Source of the DNA: Escherichia coli
GTDB taxonomy: Bacteria > Pseudomonadota > Gammaproteobacteria > Enterobacterales > Enterobacteriaceae
Length of the DNA stretch: 41,342 nt
NCBI GenBank assembly: GCA_026712295.1
Contig: GCA_026712295.1_4694.1
Strand: one strand, 5' to 3'
The notes beneath the pieces are model-generated. The model had not been told where the DNA came from and did not search any database. It saw nothing but the letters and a program-made list of their open reading frames with translations. Shown in pieces: positions 19,520 to 29,651 of the stretch. Position numbers and translations under genes: made by a program. Each line of letters opens with the position of its first letter. Position 1 is the stretch's first letter.

Positions 19520-22171
19520 TTAGGCAAACGCAAAGTCTGACTTAAGGATTTCTTGCAGGTCCAGAGAACCTTTAGCTGGCATCTCAGGCATCTTGTCAAG
19601 CTGTGATTCGTGCAACTGGTCAGCAAATTGCTCATAGAAGTCTGCAAGTACATCGTTCTCTTCGTAAGTGTTGACCATCGTTTCACGCACTGCTTTAAAC
19701 AGGTTGCCAGCATCAGCAGGGATAGTACCAAAGGAGTCGTGAATCAGTGCGAACGATTCCACACCGTAGACCTCATTGGAGCGGACCACAGTCATGCGCA
19801 GGTGGCTACCATCCATTGAGTGGACAAAGTTAGGTGCGATGCCTGACTCCTGCTTACGAGCATCAATTCCGCTATCCTTGTTGGTGTTCACGGTAGGCTG
19901 TAGACGAATCTGGCCTAAGAACATCAGGTTCAAGCGTGTCTGTACTGGCTTCTTGTATTCCTGCCAGACCGGGAAGCCATCAGGAGTAACCCAATGTACC
20001 GCACAGCGTTTGCGCAGAACCTCTTTTGTCTTCTTGTCCTTGACTTCAGCAGCCAGCAGTTTAGCAGCAGACTTCAGCCAGTTCATTGCTTCAACCGCAG
20101 CGACCACTGTCACCGTTACCGCGTTCCAAATCAGTTTAGCCATGTAGCCAGCCGCTTGGTTCGGTTGAGTGAACATCAAGCCCTTGCCATCGTCGATAGC
20201 TGGCTGAATTGTATCCTCTAGCACTTGGTCACGGAAGCCATACTCTTTGGAACCATACGCCAAGGTCATAACGGAACGCTTAGTCTCCTTACGAGTAACA
20301 CCGTATGCTAACCATTGACCAGCCAGTTCCTTCGTGCCCAGCTTGAGCTTCTCAGTGATTTCCCCTGTGTCCTTATTGGTCACGGTTTCGACTTCGTTGT
20401 CGGTGCCATTTATTACATCTTGCTTCAGAATCTCGTTGACACGTTCCGCTACGATGCGGTAGATGTCTTGTACCTCTTTGCTTGGCAGCAGGTTAACCGC
20501 ACGACCACCAATCTCATCACGGAGCATCGCGGAGAAGTGCTGAATACCGGAGCAGCTACCATCGAACGCCAGCGGAAGAGAGCAGTTGTAGTTCATCCCG
20601 TGGTGTTGCACACCTGCATACTCGAAGCAGAACGCGAGGAAGCAGAACGGAGAATCTTGCTCGGCCCACCAAGTGTTAGCAATCGGGTCAGCCGCAACGC
20701 TCATGATGTTCTCATGGTTGTCATCAATGAACTTGATGCGTTCTGCAAAGTCCACCTTGTCCACGCCAGCAGTGTTAGCACCGTGAATCTTCAGCCAGTA
20801 GTACCCATCGACACCGATTGGTTTACCTTTAGCCAACGTCAGCAAGCCTTTGGTCATGTCGTTGCCTTGCGGGTTAAACATCGGCACAGCATACACACGA
20901 CCGCGCCAGTCCATGTTCATTGGGAACCAGATAGCTTTGAACTGTGCGAACTTATTGGCCTGACCTAACATGAACTCCATGCTCATGCGGCGTGACACTC
21001 GTGCCTTCTCTTTGCGGTAGATTGCGGAGGCCGCTTTCTTCCACGCTTTCAGAGCCGCTTCGTTCGTGTCGATGTCATCAGGTTTGACCGGGAGTTCTCC
21101 ACGTTCCAGAGCGGGTACATCTTCAACCGGGCAATGCTTCCAGTTCACAATCTCGTTGACCACTGCCAGAACCTTCTTGTTAATCTTCCAAGGAGTATTC
21201 TGTGCGATGTTCACGGCCTTGTAAACTTCAGGCATGTACACATCGTTGTAACGCTCAAGTCCCTTCTTGCTACCAGTGCGAACCAGAGAGAGAGGCTTGC
21301 GACCAGCAGCCCAATAGCCACCACCGACCGGAGAAGTCCAAGGCTTAGGTGGGACCACGCAAGGCTGATACATTGGAGCGATTGCAGCCAGTGCACCAGC
21401 ACGTTTAGATAACAGGTCAACGTATTGTTCGGTCAGTTGGATGTACTCGCCATCCTTCTCGATGTTCCCAGCGAACGGGCGGTGTAACTCAACGAGACCA
21501 GTAGACCCAATGAGCAGTTCCAACATGCGCACACCAACGTGAATTGATTCTTCAGGTGTCCATGTGGTCCACTTGGTTTGCAGTTGACCAGCATCAAGCA
21601 TCTTGCCTTCTACAGCTTGCATGAATGCTTTCTTGTAGACGATACCAACGCGCTTGTTCAGTGCCTCCTGTACGTGGTTCTTAAAGTGCTTCGCTTCTTC
21701 GTCACGGATGCGACCAAAACGCAGTTCATCCTCAATACTGCGACCAATCTTAGTGGCGACCGATTGCAGGTTGGTGAACTCTTCTTTCGTCAAGCAAGCG
21801 AGTGTGACCTTCAGTGTGATAAATGCAGCAGCTTCAGGTGCAACCTTCTGTACCAGATTGTAGGCTACTGGACGCTTGCCACGCTTCGCTTCCACTTCAG
21901 TGAACCAATCGTTCCACGCCTCGATAAACTTCGGTGCGAGAGATGACAGGAGCGGTTTAGCCACTGCGTTATCACCGAACTCACCCGCTTTGATTTGACG
22001 TTCCATTGCCTTAAGAAAACGCTTCTCGCCTTCGGTGTGCGCTTCGTGCTCAAGCTGTAACTGCGTAGCTGCAAGCTGTGCGCCGTAATGGTCAGCCAGA
22101 ATGTTGTATGGCATGATTGCGTTAGCGATGTCAGAGAAGTCGTTCTTTGGTGCGTTGATTACGTTAGTCAT
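19520..22171 (-). CDS. 1: DNA-directed RNA polymerase gp1 (single-subunit), 883 aa
   Basis: Same length as T7 RNAP; long identical blocks (MFNPQGNDMTKGLLTLAKGKPIG, WWAEQDSPFCFLAFCFEYAGVQHHG, AFDGSCSGIQHFSAMLRDE, ALIHDSFGTIPADA, C-terminal FAFA). Confidence 0.97.
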   Translation of the reverse strand: MTNVINAPKNDFSDIANAIMPYNILADHYGAQLAATQLQLEHEAHTEGEKRFLKAMERQIKAGEFGDNAVAKPLLSSLAPKFIEAWNDWFTEVEAKRGKRPVAYNLVQKVAPEAAAFITLKVTLACLTKEEFTNLQSVATKIGRSIEDELRFGRIRDEEAKHFKNHVQEALNKRVGIVYKKAFMQAVEGKMLDAGQLQTKWTTWTPEESIHVGVRMLELLIGSTGLVELHRPFAGNIEKDGEYIQLTEQYVDLLSKRAGALAAIAPMYQPCVVPPKPWTSPVGGGYWAAGRKPLSLVRTGSKKGLERYNDVYMPEVYKAVNIAQNTPWKINKKVLAVVNEIVNWKHCPVEDVPALERGELPVKPDDIDTNEAALKAWKKAASAIYRKEKARVSRRMSMEFMLGQANKFAQFKAIWFPMNMDWRGRVYAVPMFNPQGNDMTKGLLTLAKGKPIGVDGYYWLKIHGANTAGVDKVDFAERIKFIDDNHENIMSVAADPIANTWWAEQDSPFCFLAFCFEYAGVQHHGMNYNCSLPLAFDGSCSGIQHFSAMLRDEIGGRAVNLLPSKEVQDIYRIVAERVNEILKQDVINGTDNEVETVTNKDTGEITEKLKLGTKELAGQWLAYGVTRKETKRSVMTLAYGSKEYGFRDQVLEDTIQPAIDDGKGLMFTQPNQAAGYMAKLIWNAVTVTVVAAVEAMNWLKSAAKLLAAEVKDKKTKEVLRKRCAVHWVTPDGFPVWQEYKKPVQTRLNLMFLGQIRLQPTVNTNKDSGIDARKQESGIAPNFVHSMDGSHLRMTVVRSNEVYGVESFALIHDSFGTIPADAGNLFKAVRETMVNTYEENDVLADFYEQFADQLHESQLDKMPEMPAKGSLDLQEILKSDFAFA

Positions 22172-22194
22172 TGTTGCCTCACGTTGTTAAGAAA

Positions 22195-22240
22195 GTTTAT
22201 CTATAAAGGCCAGCAGTCAGTGCCGACCTTGAAGATACAC
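22195..22240 (-). promoter_or_regulatory. RNase III-type processing hairpin (R1-like)
   Basis: GTTTATCTATAAAGGCCAGCAGTCAGTGCCGACCTTGAAGATACAC between genes 0.7 and 1. Confidence 0.5.
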
Positions 22241-22244
22241 CTTA

Positions 22245-23330
22245 TCAGCCTTGCAGTTGTGCGTCAAGTAACTTGTCAATGTTCAGAGGGAGACCCGCTT
22301 GGATTGCTAGGCGGTCCCCTAGTTGCCACTTGAGGCCGTTCACTTGTTCAACCTTGCGTGCCGCTGAGGGACCATTGCGGAACCAGAAGTTATTCCATGC
22401 AGACCCCATGAGCATCTCAGCGCGGCGTTCGTTCCTATCAATGGCCCTGCGTTCGATGCGACCTTTAACAAACTGTGCCATACCTTTGACGTGTAACTTA
22501 CGGTTACGCTTGCGGCGTTTCATTGCGGCCTTGCGGTTAACCTGAAAGGAGCCGTTAGGGTCACGCTTGGCCTTGCGGTTGCGACATCGTTCAATCATGC
22601 GTTCTTGCGCTACAGCCTCGACCTCGGCCAGCAGTGCTTCAGGGTCCAGAGGGAAACCGTCCTCACGTTCACGGTCATGTGAGAAGCTGACTGGGTCAGT
22701 GATGTACGGAACATCGTTATCGTCGAACATAATGTTCCCGCTGTGCATGTCGAAAGATGCAATCCCTTTGAAGAACTCACGAATCATTTTGCAAGTCTCG
22801 ATGAACTCGTAGTCACCCGGTGCAAAGTCGCTTGCGTCATGGCAATCCGACTCCACAAAGTAACGTGCGAGGTCAGCGTATACCTCATGGTCATAATTAT
22901 CGTCGTCACAGCTATGTAAGCGGTCCAGTACGACCGTATAGCAACCTGCATGACGTGCTACGTGATAGATGTTAGGGATACCCGCTCGGCCTTGGTGCAT
23001 CCTACAGAATGCAGTGTATGCTGCGCCTGAATCCTCTTTCTTAAAGCCAACCTTGATGACTCGACCCGGTAACATTTCGTGCGAGTAGGCCGCACTAAAA
23101 TGACCATTACCCAACATACGAAAACCTGCATCACGCATGAGAGCGCCCAAGGTGTTCCACCAGTCCTGATACTCAAGACACTGCGACCCGTTTGTATCGT
23201 TACCATCGCATGTTTCACCGTTCACGATGTCAGCAGCCAGTGCAACCAGAAGAGGCTGGCGCTTGTCCAAGTCACTAATCGGAAGAGACTTGATGATTTC
23301 CAGACGTGCCTGAATGTCGGTGTAGTTCAT
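22245..23330 (-). CDS. 0.7: Ser/Thr protein kinase and host shut-off protein gp0.7, 361 aa
   Basis: Similar to T7 gp0.7 (LPISDLDKRQ, GNGHFSAAYSH, VIKVGFKKEDSGAAYTAFCRM, GIASFDMHSGNIMF). Confidence 0.9.
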   Translation of the reverse strand: MNYTDIQARLEIIKSLPISDLDKRQPLLVALAADIVNGETCDGNDTNGSQCLEYQDWWNTLGALMRDAGFRMLGNGHFSAAYSHEMLPGRVIKVGFKKEDSGAAYTAFCRMHQGRAGIPNIYHVARHAGCYTVVLDRLHSCDDDNYDHEVYADLARYFVESDCHDASDFAPGDYEFIETCKMIREFFKGIASFDMHSGNIMFDDNDVPYITDPVSFSHDREREDGFPLDPEALLAEVEAVAQERMIERCRNRKAKRDPNGSFQVNRKAAMKRRKRNRKLHVKGMAQFVKGRIERRAIDRNERRAEMLMGSAWNNFWFRNGPSAARKVEQVNGLKWQLGDRLAIQAGLPLNIDKLLDAQLQG

Positions 23331-23355
23331 TAGATTGTGTCCTATTTAGTTAGAT

Positions 23356-23493
23356 TTAGATGTTGTTGAGCTTGCGGTTGGTGCGCAGTTCACGCTTAAG
23401 GCGTTCGATTCGCTGTTTCATTGCGAAGCCATCAGGTGTGCAAACTGTAGCGCCGTTCTTGGTATGGATAGGCATAACGTAATGTTTCAGCAT
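23356..23493 (-). CDS. 0.6: gp0.6-like small protein, 45 aa
   Basis: Track ORF (alternative start) trimmed to ATG at 23493; MLKHYVMPIHTKNGATVCTPDGFAMKQRIERLKRELRTNRK nearly identical to T7 gp0.6A; weak RBS. Confidence 0.65.
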   Translation of the reverse strand: MLKHYVMPIHTKNGATVCTPDGFAMKQRIERLKRELRTNRKLNNI

Positions 23494-23521
23494 GATATTA
23501 ATCCCGTGCGTTGTTTCAAAA

Positions 23522-23569
23522 GTGATAATCATAAAGGCCACTCGCTAGGAGCGACCTTGAGTTTATCAC
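23522..23569 (-). promoter_or_regulatory. RNase III-type processing hairpin (R0.5-like)
   Basis: GTGATAATCATAAAGGCCACTCGCTAGGAGCGACCTTGAGTTTATCAC, reverse complement of the T7 R0.5 sequence. Confidence 0.65.
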
Positions 23570-23614
23570 TGGTTAGACTAAAAGGCTATTGTCCAGTGCG
23601 TGCAAATCGCGCCA

Positions 23615-23815
23615 TCAGTCATTCCAGCCTGCACATGTTGCTTGGTGTATCACGCAGGCTTGGTATTCTTCCTGCGCCAAAACCTCGTTCACCCAATGCG
23701 TGACTTGTTTACCGTATCGTACAACGTAGGTGCTACCCATTGCCCCGTGATCATACTCTCGCAGTGTTACAGTGCATTGACCTTTGATTTTAGATGTTGC
23801 CAGAAGTTTACTCAT
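23615..23815 (-). CDS. Hypothetical protein, 66 aa, at the position of T7 gene 0.4 but unrelated in sequence
   Basis: Track ORF 23615..23860 trimmed to ATG at 23815 with AGGA RBS; MSKLLATSKIKGQCTVTLREYDHGAMGSTYVVRYGKQVTHWVNEVLAQEEYQACVIHQATCAGWND. Confidence 0.5.
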   Translation of the reverse strand: MSKLLATSKIKGQCTVTLREYDHGAMGSTYVVRYGKQVTHWVNEVLAQEEYQACVIHQATCAGWND

Positions 23816-23840
23816 GGTGTTAGTCCTATTGCATGTTAAA

Positions 23841-23888
23841 TGATAATCATGAAAGGCCACTCATATTGAGCGACCTTGAGTTTATCAC
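23841..23888 (-). promoter_or_regulatory. RNase III-type processing hairpin, second near-identical copy
   Basis: TGATAATCATGAAAGGCCACTCATATTGAGCGACCTTGAGTTTATCAC; paralogous to the element at 23522..23569. Confidence 0.55.
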
Positions 23889-24347
23889 TTACTGTACTTG
23901 CCAGCGGCGACCGAACTCATCAATAGTGAAGCAGCCTTTCAGTGCCTCGGTGCGTGGGACTTCTTGGAAGCTACCATGTAGACGTTCAGCTTTGTACCCG
24001 TCGATGCCTTTAGCGTACACTAAGCCAGCCGTGTGAGTCTGTGATTTATAGACCAGCACGCAATCTTGTTCCCACTCATTACATGCCAGACGTGCGACAT
24101 TGAGAACCTGTGCCTTGTCTTTACAACGTACACGGATTGTTTTCTCTTCAGTTGGTGCACTTGAGATGGCTTCGCGGTAACAGCCAGTTAAATCGGTAGA
24201 CTCAACGCTACCATAAAGACCCGGTGCGTTGCGCAGGTTGTTAACCATGTGGCGGTGGCGACTCATGTTGACCTCATCGTCGAGGTTAGAACGGAATGCG
24301 CTTACCAGTACATAGAAAACATTAGCTTGCTCTTTAGTGTGAATCAT
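23889..24347 (-). CDS. 0.3: S-adenosyl-L-methionine hydrolase (T3-type gene 0.3 anti-restriction protein), 152 aa
   Basis: Track ORF trimmed to ATG at 24347 with GAGG RBS; near-identical to T3 SAMase (ANVFYVLVSAFRSNL, RHRHMV, APGLYGSVESTDLTGCYREAISSAPTEEKT, CFTIDEFGRRWQVQ). Confidence 0.9.
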   Translation of the reverse strand: MIHTKEQANVFYVLVSAFRSNLDDEVNMSRHRHMVNNLRNAPGLYGSVESTDLTGCYREAISSAPTEEKTIRVRCKDKAQVLNVARLACNEWEQDCVLVYKSQTHTAGLVYAKGIDGYKAERLHGSFQEVPRTEALKGCFTIDEFGRRWQVQ

Positions 24348-24361
24348 GATGATTGCCTCGA

Positions 24362-24407
24362 TGTTGGTTACAGTGATTATCATAAAGGCTTCTCTTTCGA
24401 GTCACCT
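24362..24407 (-). promoter_or_regulatory. RNase III-type processing hairpin (R0.3-like)
   Basis: TGATTATCATAAAGGCTTCTCTTTCGAGTCACCTTGAGTTAATCGC directly upstream of gene 0.3. Confidence 0.5.
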
Positions 24408-24535
24408 TGAGTTAATCGCTAGTGCCGCCATCTCAAGAGTGCTATTGTCACCAAATTGTTAAAGAGCTTTAAGTGCAGGTTTGTTAGCACCGAGTCCCTT
24501 TCAGTGTAGGACTTCACAAGAACGTTATGTCGTAC

Positions 24536-24565
24536 ATCTTACATCTTGTTGTTGCTACTTGTCAA
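24536..24565 (-). promoter_or_regulatory. Host sigma70 early promoter (A3-like)
   Basis: Minus strand TTGACA - 18 nt - TAAGAT; homologous in sequence and order to T7 A3. Confidence 0.7.
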
Positions 24566-24631
24566 CTACTTTTGTTTCTCACCGTGACACCTCATGTTGT
24601 TTCAGAGGGCGACCAGTTGTTGACGACTGCT

Positions 24632-24660
24632 ATACTACGTTATTGCTTTCGTTGAGTCAA
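24632..24660 (-). promoter_or_regulatory. Host sigma70 early promoter (A2-like)
   Basis: Minus strand TTGACT - 17 nt - TAGTAT. Confidence 0.7.
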
Positions 24661-24766
24661 CCACTTTCGTGTGTCTGGTTGATGACTACTTGAGACATTC
24701 CCGCCTCACCAGATAACTCTAGGTCTTGTCTAGTGGTTGGTAGCGCTGTGTCTCTCAACGGTTGCT

Positions 24767-24795
24767 ATAGTCTCATAAGCTATTATCAATGTCAA
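24767..24795 (-). promoter_or_regulatory. Host sigma70 early promoter (A1-like)
   Basis: Minus strand TTGACA - 17 nt - GACTAT followed by AGCAACCGTTGAGAGACACAGCG, homologous to the T7 A1 region. Confidence 0.65.
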
Positions 24796-24896
24796 CCCTC
24801 AATCTTAAAGAATCTCAAAGTCTCTCTTTAAGTGGTCTTATAGTCTCTTATAGTCTCTTATAGTGGACATAAAGAGAGGATGACCAGTATTAGCTA

Positions 24897-24919
24897 TTCC
24901 TCAATAGTGAGTCGCATTA
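24897..24919 (-). promoter_or_regulatory. T7-type promoter (phiOL-like, left-end replication promoter)
   Basis: Minus strand TAATGCGACTCACTATTGAGGAA, upstream of the sigma70 promoters as phiOL is in T7. Confidence 0.65.
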
Positions 24920-25117
24920 AAGGCTATTGACTATCAGCCACCTTTAAGGCACTATAGGCACTCAGTCGATTCTACTTGTCCCTCTCATCACTCAGGGACT
25001 GCTAAACAGAGTGAGATAGTGATTTCCCTTTGTGACGAAGCCTATTGGTCACTGATAAACATAAGGCACTGACTGAAGGTTAACATAAGGATAGGCAGCC
25101 ATAAGGATAGACATAAG

Positions 25118-25547
25118 GAGGTGACATAAGGTGATAACTCTAGGGTCACTTACAGATAGGGACACAGAGAGGACTACATATAGTGGTCATAAGGTATCAC
25201 TAAGCACCATATCTAGTGGTTACACCTAGAGTTAACCCAATGTCTCACAAAAGGATTGACTTCAGGTAAACCATGAGTTACCATAGAGGAAGGCTCTTTG
25301 GGTGGACTGAAGGAGGCCATAGGGGGGGGGGAGAGGTGACATAAGGTGATAACTCTAGGGTCACTTACAGATAGGGACACAGAGAGGACTACATATAGTG
25401 GTCATAAGGTATCACTAAGCACCATATCTAGTGGTTACACCTAGAGTTAACCCAATGTCTCACAAAAGGATTGACTTCAGGTAAACCATGAGTTACCATA
25501 GAGGAAGGCTCTTTGGGTGGACTGAAGGAGGCCATAGGGGGGGGACT
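25118..25547. repeat. Two adjacent copies of the direct terminal repeat (~214 bp each, 25118..25332 and 25333..25544); junction marks the linear genome ends
   Basis: Copies identical except terminal G-run (10 G vs 8 G); internal motif ACAGATAGGGACACAGAGAG is shared with the T7 terminal repeat; CATAAGG heptamers flank both sides. Confidence 0.8.
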
Positions 25548-25952: not shown

Positions 25953-26108
25953 AGAGCGTCCTCCTTGTTATACTTGATGGTTACACTGATAGTAGGGATG
26001 TAATTACTATTACCATCATCCCTCACTGTAAGGTCTCTAAGAGTTAGTCACTAAGTATGCACTTTGCATATGCAGTCTTTAAGTGTCTTTAAGTTGTCTT
26101 AGGGTGCC

Positions 26109-26131
26109 CTTCCCAATAGTGAGTCGTATTA
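26109..26131 (-). promoter_or_regulatory. T7-type promoter (phiOR-like), duplicated copy
   Basis: Minus strand TAATACGACTCACTATTGGGAAG. Confidence 0.7.
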
Positions 26132-26397
26132 ATTTCTTCATGTATATCAGTAAGTTACTTAACGGTAACGTAGCGGTACTAAGTGCTTACCTATGCACCT
26201 TTCCCGCATACTTATCTATTACCACTCAATGAAGCAGCTAGAGTCTCCATCATCCTCATAGTAGATGTCCACGCCACCAACATCGTAGCTATGGATAGCA
26301 TCACCACCAATGGTCTGTTTCTCCATGTGGTGTTCAAGGAACTCAAGGGTCATCTCTTCTTCAATCTTTAAGTGTCTTTAAGTTGTCTTAGGGTGCC

Positions 26398-26420
26398 CTT
26401 CCCAATAGTGAGTCGTATTA
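26398..26420 (-). promoter_or_regulatory. T7-type promoter (phiOR-like, right-end promoter downstream of gene 19)
   Basis: Minus strand TAATACGACTCACTATTGGGAAG. Confidence 0.75.
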
Positions 26421-26507
26421 ATTTCTTCATGTATATCAGTAAGTTACTTAACGGTAACGTAGCGGTACTAAGTGCTTACCTATGCACCTTTCCCGCATAC
26501 TTATCTA

Positions 26508-28265
26508 TTACCACTCAATGAAGCAGCTAGAGTCTCCATCATCCTCATAGTAGATGTCCACGCCACCAACATCGTAGCTATGGATAGCATCACCACCAAT
26601 GGTCTGTTTCTCCATGTGGTGTTCAAGGAACTCAAGGGTCATCTCTTCTTCACCTACACGGCTGTCCACAAGCATCCCTTCACGAAGGAACTCGATACCC
26701 AATGCGATAGCATCAATGCGGTCATCGTGTGCCACAGCGCCTCGCTCACGGGTCATACGGGTCATCTGATAGAACGCACTGTAGCGGACATCATGTTTCC
26801 CATCAAGGTCACGAGCAGTCTGGTAGTCCTCACGGATAACCTCATCACGAATGACCAGCTTGTGGGCACCCATCAACGGTTCGATAGTATCGCAGATTCG
26901 CATCTCCTTCATGCCCTTAGCACGGATTTCCTCTAAGGCACACTTATGGTGCTTCAGGAGAATCGGAGAGAAAATCTTACCGAACATACCGTCACCGAAG
27001 TTGGACTCGTGGACTACTGTCTGTACCTTCCACTGCTTGGCCTTCTTAGCGAGCTTCTCTAGGGTAGCATCATCGTAACCACCACGGAACCCACCGACTT
27101 CCATCAAGTAGATATAACCATTAAGTGAGTAGAGGACTGCGTACCCGGTCTCATCCTTACCACGACCACTTGGGTCAATGACCAGAATCTTAGACTGATA
27201 CTCAGCGGTACGAGAAGAGCACGTATGGAACGCATGGATGTCGTCACCCTTCAGACCAACGTTAGGGAGTTCCTCATTGCGGTTCTGACGGTTCGGCAAC
27301 CACTGGTAAGACAATGGGGCACGTTCAGGGTCCACAGCGCACACGATAGCATCACGGAGTCGTAGCGGGTACTTCTCGGCATCACTAAGGTTCGGGTTAA
27401 GCATGAACTGAAGTGTGTAGCCAGCTTTACCATATTCGAGTTCACGTTCACGGAGGTCATCCATATCGAATCGAACAGGGTCAGTAGGTTGACCGCGAAG
27501 TAACTCATAGCCTTCATCATACTCTTGCTTGAGCATAGGAGCCAGTCGGTCGCCATAATAGAGAGCCTCAGCGTCATTACGTGGATACTGTGCTGGCCAG
27601 ATTACTGTGCTGTACCCTTTGTTATCCTCAAGTTCCTTGTAGAGCGTCATCTCAGTTTGAGGTGTGCCAAGGTAGATAACACGAGAGGTAGGCAGCGGCT
27701 TAAGTAATGCAGCGAACTCAGTTACCAACGTCCAGAGCTTCTCACGAGCAGAACTCGTAGAGCTATTACCGGGAACCTCAACGTCATCTGCGATAATGAT
27801 GTCAGCACGGCTACCAGTTAACTGACCAGTGATACCTACAGACTTCACAGAGGGTGAGTGGTCGGGTTTAGCCAAGCCAACATCGAAGCTAATCACGGAG
27901 TCACGCTGTCCCGGTCGAGGTTTCAACTCAGAGAGGAACGGAAGGAGGTCGATGATGTTCTTGATGAAGATGGAGTTAGCATCAGCACGTTCCTTAGAGG
28001 CAGACACGATGAGAACCTTAAGTTGAGGGTCTCGCCATAAGACCCACACGACGAACGCACAGGTGATAAAGGACTTGCCGATACCACGGAACGCCTGAAG
28101 GATAAACTTCTTGTGGTCGCCGTTAGCGAGTGTACGTGCCATATCAATCTGACACTTGGTTGGTTTAGGTAAGTTCAGAGCCTTCCATAAGACGAACAGG
28201 AAGGCCACGAAGTCACCCTTAAGTTGCGCCACGATGAGCGCATTCTTGTTTGCTTGAGTAGACAT
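26508..28265 (-). CDS. 19: Terminase large subunit (DNA maturase B) gp19, 585 aa
   Basis: Walker A-like GIGKS, strong similarity to T7 gp19 (one residue shorter than T7); GGAGG RBS. Confidence 0.95.
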
Positions 28266-29283: not shown

Positions 29284-29336
29284 AACTACCCTCCCGTATT
29301 TTCAGATTTCACGTAGCGTCACCGTGAGTTGTGTTG

Positions 29337-29380
29337 AAATATCATAAAGACCACTAGATGTAGTGGCCTTGAGTTATTCC
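29337..29380 (-). promoter_or_regulatory. RNase III-type processing hairpin (R18.5-like)
   Basis: GAAATATCATAAAGACCACTAGATGTAGTGGCCTTGAGTTATTCC with a perfect CCACTAGATGTAGTGG stem. Confidence 0.55.
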
Positions 29381-29381
29381 A

Positions 29382-29651
29382 TCAGTTCAGCGTGTACTTC
29401 TCATCTTCAGTGAGACCATCGGCACCTACCATGTTCTGGTACTCTTCGAGTCCATCTGCCAGTCCACCAAGGATGTTACGGTCTGGCTGTAACTTGGAGA
29501 CTTGGAACTTGTGGCGCTCTAACAGTTTCCCGATTGCGTTGTACAGTTGAGGTGTGCGCTTATCGTCATCCTGAAGGTCTTTCAGCATACGTTGAGCCAT
29601 CTCAGTATCCAGCATCTCAAGGAATTGGATTAATGATTTATCGTTAGACAT
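29382..29651 (-). CDS. 18: Terminase small subunit (DNA maturase A) gp18, 89 aa
   Basis: Same length as T7 gp18; SLIQFLEMLDT, PQLYNAIGKLLERHKFQ blocks. Confidence 0.9.
   Translation of the reverse strand: MSNDKSLIQFLEMLDTEMAQRMLKDLQDDDKRTPQLYNAIGKLLERHKFQVSKLQPDRNILGGLADGLEEYQNMVGADGLTEDEKYTLN

Follow-up and report, generated by a model that had tools for sequence, protein, structure and literature searches.

RNase III-type hairpins as processing sites and probable joints for early-gene cassettes in T7-group phages

Background

The 41,342-nucleotide (nt) stretch of DNA analyzed here (the window; contig GCA_026712295.1_4694.1 of the Escherichia coli assembly GCA_026712295.1) is the complete genome of a Berlin-type phage of the T7 group, with nearly all genes on the minus strand. 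Its early region includes a small open reading frame (ORF) of 66 amino acids (aa) that is bracketed by two hairpins of about 48 nt, hairpin A (23841..23888, minus strand) and hairpin B (23522..23569, minus strand). Between genes 0.3 and 0.7, a single site of this kind is present in T7, in T3 and in phiYeO3-12, whereas the window has two, placed on either side of a single gene. Why should an RNA-processing signal be repeated in this way? An initial sequence-only reading of the region had suggested that the repeated hairpin mediates the exchange of gene cassettes and that the ORF had been swapped into the slot occupied in T7 by gene 0.4.

The comparison presented below supports the first of these suggestions and not the second. 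We propose that hairpins of the R0.5 type, besides being RNA-processing sites, form the joint through which phages acquire, lose and rearrange early-gene cassettes, and we estimate the probability that this is correct at roughly 70%. The individual parts are already known and the same block occurs in deposited genomes; the value of the analysis lies in the comparative pattern.

Results

Two R0.5-class hairpins

The order on the minus strand is sigma-70-like promoters, an R0.3-type hairpin, the gene for S-adenosylmethionine lyase (SAMase), hairpin A, the 66-aa ORF, hairpin B, gene 0.6A, gene 0.7, an R1 hairpin and gene 1. The hairpin-ORF-hairpin segment belongs to the pre-early (class I) region, which is transcribed by the host RNA polymerase. 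The two hairpins are identical at 44 positions of a 50-column alignment (approximately 90%), both stems being the same in each. They differ in the apical loop (AATAT in A, CCTAGC in B) and by one extra C in the internal loop of A. Their start-to-start spacing is 319 nt. Each folds as two stems separated by an asymmetric internal loop (hairpin A, -22.7 kcal/mol, z = -6.05; hairpin B, -22.1 kcal/mol, z = -4.72), and none of 200 shuffled sequences folded as well. The expected number of chance occurrences of their shared core pattern within the window is 0.00.

Seven window hairpins were aligned with the RNase III sites annotated in T3 and phiYeO3-12 (14 sites in all). The consensus structure has 20 pairs, with compensatory changes in 12 of them. 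A covariance model derived from this alignment finds eight sites in the window, all on the coding strand, seven of which were among its training sequences; hairpins A and B score 69.5 and 68.9 bits. Hairpin B aligns along 100% of its length with T7 R0.5 (the hairpin found by the model after T7 gene 0.4) at 98% identity, and comparison by eye reveals one substitution. For hairpin A and phiYeO3-12 R0.45 the identity is 91%, with 92% of the hairpin aligned. The SAMase stop codon abuts hairpin A, a position that carries the annotated RNase III site 'R0.5' in T3 and 'R0.45' in phiYeO3-12. The sites of T7 (R0.5), T3 (R0.5) and phiYeO3-12 (R0.45) belong to the same sequence family as hairpins A and B and share their fold, strand and intergenic class I position. 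A scan of positions 22000-25200 against Rfam at E <= 1 returned no matching family.

RNase III processes T7 transcripts at specific sites (PMC6938266). Hairpins A and B are intergenic, lie on the transcribed strand and are located downstream of host-type early promoters. They display every testable feature of the T7-group RNase III processing sites, of which we consider them members, and cleavage at both is predicted. T7 R0.5 itself was reportedly mapped experimentally (Dunn and Studier, 1983), with RNase III said to cut in the internal loop so that the upstream mRNA ends in a stabilizing hairpin. The sequence-only reading was accurate in describing, at these coordinates, two near-identical RNase III-type hairpins on either side of a 66-aa ORF.

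Gene 0.45 between the hairpins

The ORF (23615..23815, minus strand, 66 aa plus stop) begins with an ATG at 23815 and is preceded by a leader (23816..23840, minus strand) that includes the ribosome-binding site TAGGA. A mechanically generated ORF list contains an 81-aa version with a GTG start codon inside the hairpin. The 66-aa product matches phrog_6500 across residues 1-66 of 66 (E = 1e-44) and is 86% identical at the aa level to gp0.45 of phiYeO3-12. The sequence match identifies the ORF as a gene that already has a name, gene 0.45. Homologues occur in 150 phage records, and comparison with 10 diverged homologues gives a ratio of nonsynonymous to synonymous substitution rates (dN/dS) of 0.03-0.11, the pattern of a protein-coding gene evolving under purifying selection. 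As the sequence-only reading had stated, gp0.45 shows no similarity to T7 gp0.4.

The sequences between gene and hairpins are also conserved. The leader is 96-100% identical over its full length in six relatives, and the leader motif CA[C/T]TTAACAT precedes gene 0.45 in many, although not all, contexts, independently of what lies upstream. The 45-nt trailer from the stop codon to hairpin B (23570..23614, minus strand) is 100% identical in the Enterobacter phage PZJ0206 and in nasanit, and partly conserved (91-93%) in the T7-type phages that carry the cassette.

A structural model of gp0.45 (AlphaFold2, AF2; predicted local distance difference test score, pLDDT, 83) comprises four beta strands followed by a helix at the C terminus. 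There was no match in Pfam and none in a PDB fold search at E <= 0.001; structural matches in BFVD were confined to uncharacterized small phage proteins. An exhaustive profile search added 39 weak relatives, nearly all of 60-120 aa and without annotation in the library searched. A literature search, whose reach did not extend to the phiYeO3-12 and T3 genome papers, yielded no functional study of gp0.45. The cysteine pair described in the sequence-only reading as C-x7-C is in fact C-x6-C (QACVIHQATCAGW), and neither cysteine is invariant. We rejected a metal or disulphide motif as a defining feature of the protein, since Cys14, Cys54 and Cys61 are each substituted in some homologues. Because gp0.45 is encoded among Ocr, SAM lyase, gp0.4, gp0.6 and gp0.7, it might, with low confidence, be regarded as a putative host-takeover or anti-defence factor.

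Signs of recombination at the hairpin

For comparison with relatives, hairpins were located using the covariance model together with an nhmmer profile, and early genes using tblastn, in loci taken from IMG/VR and GenBank. About fifty loci hold part of the early region. They provide 25 distinct gene 0.45 contexts and 44 distinct instances of R0.5-class hairpins. In IMG/VR, a second locus scan added one locus; the remaining enlargement of the set came from GenBank records.

One IMG/VR locus (L005) has the backbone of the window (genes 0.7 and 1 at 90-92% identity) and the order SAMase-hairpin-0.6A, with no gene 0.45. The interval from SAMase to 0.6A is 76 nt in L005 compared with 395 nt in the window, and the difference, 319 nt, is the exact repeat period. 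The single hairpin of L005 is chimeric: it has the loop of hairpin A and the extra C, followed by the 3' flank of hairpin B. This is the expected product of a crossover in the 3' arm. Since the repeat leads MAFFT to place the 319-nt gap arbitrarily to the left, the junction was taken from the hairpin sequences themselves. The same indel pattern distinguishes T7 from CICC 80001, the T7 hairpin combining the upstream 5' flank with the downstream loop. Here the crossover point differs from that in L005, which indicates an independent event.

The complete unit also appears to have crossed between backbones. From hairpin A through gene 0.45 to hairpin B, the window is 98-99% identical to the T7-type phages HZ2R8 and CICC 80001, while genes 0.7 and 1 are only 66-74% identical. 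The block in common with T7-type phages extends from 23889 to approximately 23512, that is, to the outer edges of both hairpins. Among Berlin-type phages, the 401-nt hairpin-0.45-hairpin block is 99.5% identical in PZJ0206 and 99.3% in nasanit, and in the comparison with nasanit identity is about 80% in SAMase and 100% in the bin holding hairpin A. Across genera, the R0.5-class hairpin is 98-100% conserved, and conservation is far lower for the R0.3 and R1 hairpins of these genomes. Identity at the level of R0.5 is therefore not required by RNase III function alone.

The 44 hairpin instances allow the edges of this conservation to be examined. The 5' flank tracks the upstream gene and the 3' flank tracks the downstream gene. 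The core hardly varies, and around it the loop variants assort independently. When the neighbours of two instances differ, the similarity between them extends for a median of 13 nt into the 3' side, where the arm ends at 10-11, and of 9 nt into the 5' side, where it ends at 7-8. Where the upstream neighbour is the same, 5' similarity has a median of 60 nt. The corresponding contrast on the 3' side is weaker (median 17 nt, with 36% reaching 60 nt).

Gene order provides a further line of evidence. EG1 and WW2 have the order hairpin-orf94-hairpin-0.45-hairpin, while EFA-2 has hairpin-0.45-hairpin-orf94-hairpin; in one contig orf94 is located ahead of Ocr. SAMase and Ocr are both present, with a hairpin between them, in P694 and L005. 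Taken with the 319-nt indel and its chimeric hairpin, the cross-genus block and the edge breakpoints, the permuted order fits the proposal that the repeated hairpin mediates gain and loss of cassettes.

Several observations made in the course of this comparison concern the cassettes themselves. The conserved 94-aa ORF orf94 (MRLSKDTAVALRSAIES...) is a second cassette bounded by R0.5-class hairpins and may be found before gene 0.45, after it or ahead of Ocr. Examples are EG1 (L131, 1657-1941), AP10 (L136, 1342-1626) and L134 (1491-1775), and it is also present in WW2, ESh12, phiYe-F10, EFA-2 and F5M1C. In P694 (L129), L005 and L118, a T3-type SAM lyase and a T7-type Ocr occupy adjacent slots separated by a hairpin, in either order. 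The EFA-2 record (L145, MT350293.1, 'Enterococcus phage EFA-2') describes a typical T7-type enterobacterial phage, gives the host as Enterococcus faecalis and labels the Ocr gene 'receptor binding protein kinase'; this looks like an error of host or annotation.

Contexts of gene 0.45

Hairpins lie directly on both sides of gene 0.45 in 10 of the 25 contexts. Three of these are Berlin-type (the window, nasanit and PZJ0206) and the others are T7-type, where the segment follows gene 0.4 (HZ2R8, CICC 80001, 3A_8767, EG1, WW2, EFA-2 and one metagenomic contig). Only the upstream hairpin is present in four contexts (phiYeO3-12 and a near relative, P483 and P694) and only the downstream hairpin in five, four of which have a 51-aa ORF directly upstream (for example, ESh12, phiYe-F10 and F5M1C); in the fifth, Yanou, a separate 68-aa ORF is found upstream. 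The remaining six have no hairpin: AP10 and five Klebsiella phages of the Przondovirus type, in which SAMase and gene 0.45 are separated by 5-13 nt. Block coverage counts were not used for the two-hairpin totals because the match to a far-side hairpin may be joined to the block (in phiYeO3-12, two pieces, 85%).

On these sequences the hairpin bracket of gene 0.45 is common but not obligatory. The sequence-only reading had held that finding the same ORF without flanking repeats would count against it. On this point the outcome is divided: the six contexts with no hairpin and the four with the upstream one alone, phiYeO3-12 included, are of this sort, and the 10 with both hairpins are as it had envisaged. 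Its suggestion of a replacement at the gene 0.4 position did not hold, as T7-type phages have both genes, with gene 0.45 located downstream of the hairpin that comes after 0.4. This coexistence indicates that the events are additions, losses and reorderings and not a swap of 0.4 for 0.45.

A different arrangement is found in 285P (L147, 860-1517), a Berlinvirus with 95% identity: only 1 nt separates SAMase from a T3-type gene 0.6 downstream, and neither a hairpin nor gene 0.45 is present. There are therefore at least four different SAMase-to-kinase arrangements within the genus. Annotation of the segment is sparse: the PZJ0206 record does not include the small ORF, and the hairpins are annotated in no record of the window's lineage.

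Discussion

A model for cassette exchange

Our model has two parts. In the first, extrapolated from T7, host RNase III would cut the long early transcript in the internal loop of each hairpin. Cleavage at hairpins A and B would release gene 0.45 as a monocistronic mRNA of approximately 320 nt with a protective 3' hairpin. The SAMase gene and genes 0.6A/0.7 would be carried on the neighbouring mRNAs, hairpin B opening the segment that ends after 0.7. In the second part, suggested by the comparison of genomes, the conserved sequence of about 48 bp would also provide portable homology between cassettes. A cassette would then run from the 3' half of one hairpin through a leader with its ribosome-binding site, an ORF and a trailer to the 5' half of the following hairpin. 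If two copies in the same genome underwent homologous recombination in the hairpin core, the cassette would be deleted and one chimeric hairpin left; between co-infecting phages, recombination there could insert or reorder cassettes. Every product of such recombination would keep the processing site and the genes intact.

Short direct repeats are said to be efficient substrates for recombination in T7, as in Studier's deletions of the early region and in the studies of repeat length by Pierce, Kong and Masker. If so, a 48-bp repeat 319 nt apart should be deleted at a measurable rate, and the fact that many lineages have kept it argues for selection on gp0.45.

Alternative explanations

The principal alternative is that the hairpins are RNA-processing sites and nothing else. 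Their near-identity would reflect common descent and selection by RNase III, while gene content varied by other routes (illegitimate recombination, homing endonucleases or recombination in flanking genes) and selection retained one site at each junction. Several observations favour this explanation and weigh against an exchange joint. With PZJ0206, the closest relative, the breakpoint is approximately 50-100 nt inside the SAMase gene and not in the hairpin. Gene 0.45 is found with a single hairpin (phiYeO3-12, P483 and P694) or with none (the Przondovirus-type contexts), and the difference between T3 and phiYeO3-12 is not explained by a hairpin-hairpin event. In HZ2R8 and ESh12, HNH endonuclease genes adjoin hairpins. 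Edge breakpoints are partly to be expected, because differing neighbour genes must diverge somewhere within a short spacer. The sample, moreover, comprises 25 contexts and 44 hairpin instances and not the whole subfamily, and the evidence for both the processing and the recombination role consists of sequence comparison. The processing role may itself contribute little to fitness, because T7 grows without RNase III (PMC6938266). We nevertheless consider it unlikely that processing is the sole function. It does not account for the fact that two independent backbones, in which the crossover points differ, each show an indel of exactly one period together with a chimeric hairpin, nor for flanks and loops that assort freely around an invariant core, and the other RNase III sites of the same genomes are far less conserved.

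Two further explanations are highly improbable. The copies are about 90% identical and 319 nt apart, as might be expected if they were simply the result of a recent local duplication in the window's lineage, a one-off without wider meaning. This is already contradicted by their distribution, both hairpin alleles being old and widely spread: hairpin-0.45-hairpin occurs in both Berlin-type and T7-type phages, the hairpin B allele is T7's own R0.5, and the AATAT loop allele of hairpin A recurs in several other contexts and genera; gene 0.45 is, in addition, under purifying selection. Stable stem-loops in intergenic positions could equally be intrinsic terminators or attenuators that meter read-through into the downstream early genes. 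We rejected this reading for lack of a U-run on the coding strand. A terminator scan of 23300-25200 found none on the minus strand and one weak plus-strand match, within chance expectation, and the interrupted two-stem shape with its internal loop is of the RNase III type, equivalents being so annotated in T3 and phiYeO3-12.

The proposal of a passive joint, acting through plain homology, could also be extended. The R0.5-class hairpin might be an active, structure-dependent recombination joint and the pre-early region an integron-like array of cassettes (SAMase, Ocr+0.4, 0.45, orf94 and others). We speculate that, for example, the imperfect palindrome could extrude a cruciform, to be cut by the phage junction-resolving endonuclease I and followed by strand annealing through gp6/gp2.5. 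Cassettes would then pass between co-infecting phages, possibly as circles, far more often than plain 48-bp homology allows. A role for pseudo-palindromes in T3/T7 crossovers has been proposed (PMC3276506) and is the model for the cruciform-cutting idea. We regard this extension as doubtful.

Apart from these explanations, HNH or endonuclease VII-type genes lie beside or 3' of the hairpin that follows gene 0.45 in some relatives, at 2813-3256 of L127 (HZ2R8) and at approximately 3024-3524 of L143 (ESh12). Homing endonucleases might contribute to exchange at the hairpin joints.

Comparison with known systems

The closest known concept to hairpin-mediated shuffling is the promoter-early stem-loop (PeSL) cassette of T4-type phages, in which a motif is repeated between small non-essential genes of a variable region (Arbiol et al. 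2010, PMC2839356). RB49 has motif-ORFan192-motif where phi1 has a single motif in the same place, and a chimeric motif was predicted on the excised circle (PMC2839356). Recombination between PeSLs was proposed to delete, insert and shuffle ORFs while expression signals are kept intact (PMC2839356). The same relationship of motif-ORF-motif to a single chimeric motif in a sister is seen here between the window and L005 and between CICC 80001 and T7. The linker, however, is different. A PeSL consists of a strong sigma-70 early promoter and a terminator stem-loop and measures about 100 bp, whereas the present linker, an RNase III hairpin, measures about 48 bp, has no promoter inside and no U-tract, and does not qualify as a PeSL motif. 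The phages are also T7-like podoviruses with a different recombination machinery. The hairpin works like a PeSL but is not one.

Our literature search found no description of hairpin-mediated shuffling in T7-like phages (Studiervirinae); it is possible that the phiYeO3-12 genome paper includes a prior discussion. What is proposed here is shuffling through a regulatory motif in which an RNA-processing hairpin serves as the joint. With respect to phiYeO3-12, its gene 0.45 is also of 66 aa and has the same leader and ribosome-binding site as that of the window, but it runs straight into 0.6A, where the window has the trailer, the second hairpin and a T7-type 0.6A.

Other features of the window

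The nearest deposited relative is PZJ0206, with 96.3% identity across 99% of a 25-kb query; nasanit and 285P come next. PZJ0206 and nasanit have the same hairpin-0.45-hairpin block and architecture as the window, but their SAMase modules are divergent: with respect to the window module (23889-24424), the SAMase gene is only 82-84% identical. From hairpin A through 0.45, 0.6A and 0.7 to the start of gene 1, identity is approximately 93-100% (in PZJ0206, nearly all 100%). To judge from these sequences, the SAMase module has been exchanged between near-identical genomes.

Upstream of the early genes, a consensus scan identified sigma-70-like sites at 24660-24632 and 24565-24536 (minus strand), ahead of the R0.3-type hairpin. 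This predicted RNase III site, 5' of SAMase (24369..24424, minus strand; -16.5 kcal/mol, z = -3.4), is a diverged third copy of the family with 61% identity to the hairpin B core; it scores 62.9 bits with the covariance model, being among the sequences from which the model was built. Gene 0.3 (23889..24347, minus strand) encodes a T3-type SAMase of 152 aa (Pfam PF23780, E = 9e-43) with 90.8% aa identity to T3 gp0.3.

Downstream of hairpin B there is a sigma-70-like promoter match (TTGAAA-16-TATCAT, 23492..23519, minus strand; consensus scan, 10 of 12 matches), which starts just after the hairpin and ends at the gene 0.6A start codon. The T7 and T3 records annotate a B promoter near the R0.5 site, and the match is a weak candidate for a counterpart of this minor 'B' promoter. 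The gene 0.6A homologue (23356..23493, minus strand; phrog_8393, E = 4.6e-28) is of the T7 type, with 79% aa identity to T7 gp0.6A. It stops at 45 aa, compared with 53 aa in T7, and the tblastn similarity to T7 gp0.6A runs beyond the stop. It is followed by the gene 0.7 protein kinase (22245..23330, minus strand; 52-53% identity over the full length in tblastn with T7 and T3 gp0.7), a predicted R1-type RNase III hairpin (22190..22246, minus strand; covariance model 59.8 bits, -23.4 kcal/mol) and, by gene assignment, RNA polymerase gene 1 (19520-22171, minus strand).

The eighth RNase III-type hairpin found by the covariance model (29334-29386, minus strand, 36.8 bits), the one outside the training set, is in the late region, apparently near the position expected for R18.5. 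The window also contains two perfect tandem duplications, at 25118-25544 (2 x 212 nt, 215-nt period) and 26073-26650 (2 x 289 nt). Both lie close to the ends of the genome and to the 3' end of the terminase gene, and together they account for approximately 500 nt extra compared with relatives. A circularized assembly in which the direct terminal repeat was joined head to tail might explain the first; the second could be either an artefact of assembly or a genuine duplication.

Conclusions

In T7-like phages, host defences are first countered by the pre-early genes (Ocr, SAM lyase, gp0.4, gp0.6 and the gp0.7 kinase), which are also the most variable part between otherwise similar therapeutic phages. 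If a 48-bp hairpin is indeed the joint of exchange, this would explain how phages that are 95-100% identical elsewhere come to have different sets of early genes. New cassettes would be predicted to lie between R0.5-class hairpins, offering a route to mine genomes for host-takeover genes such as those encoding gp0.45 and the 94-aa ORF. For engineering, the hairpin would also be a natural landing pad at which payloads could be inserted into T7-type phages, and it would already supply a processing signal.

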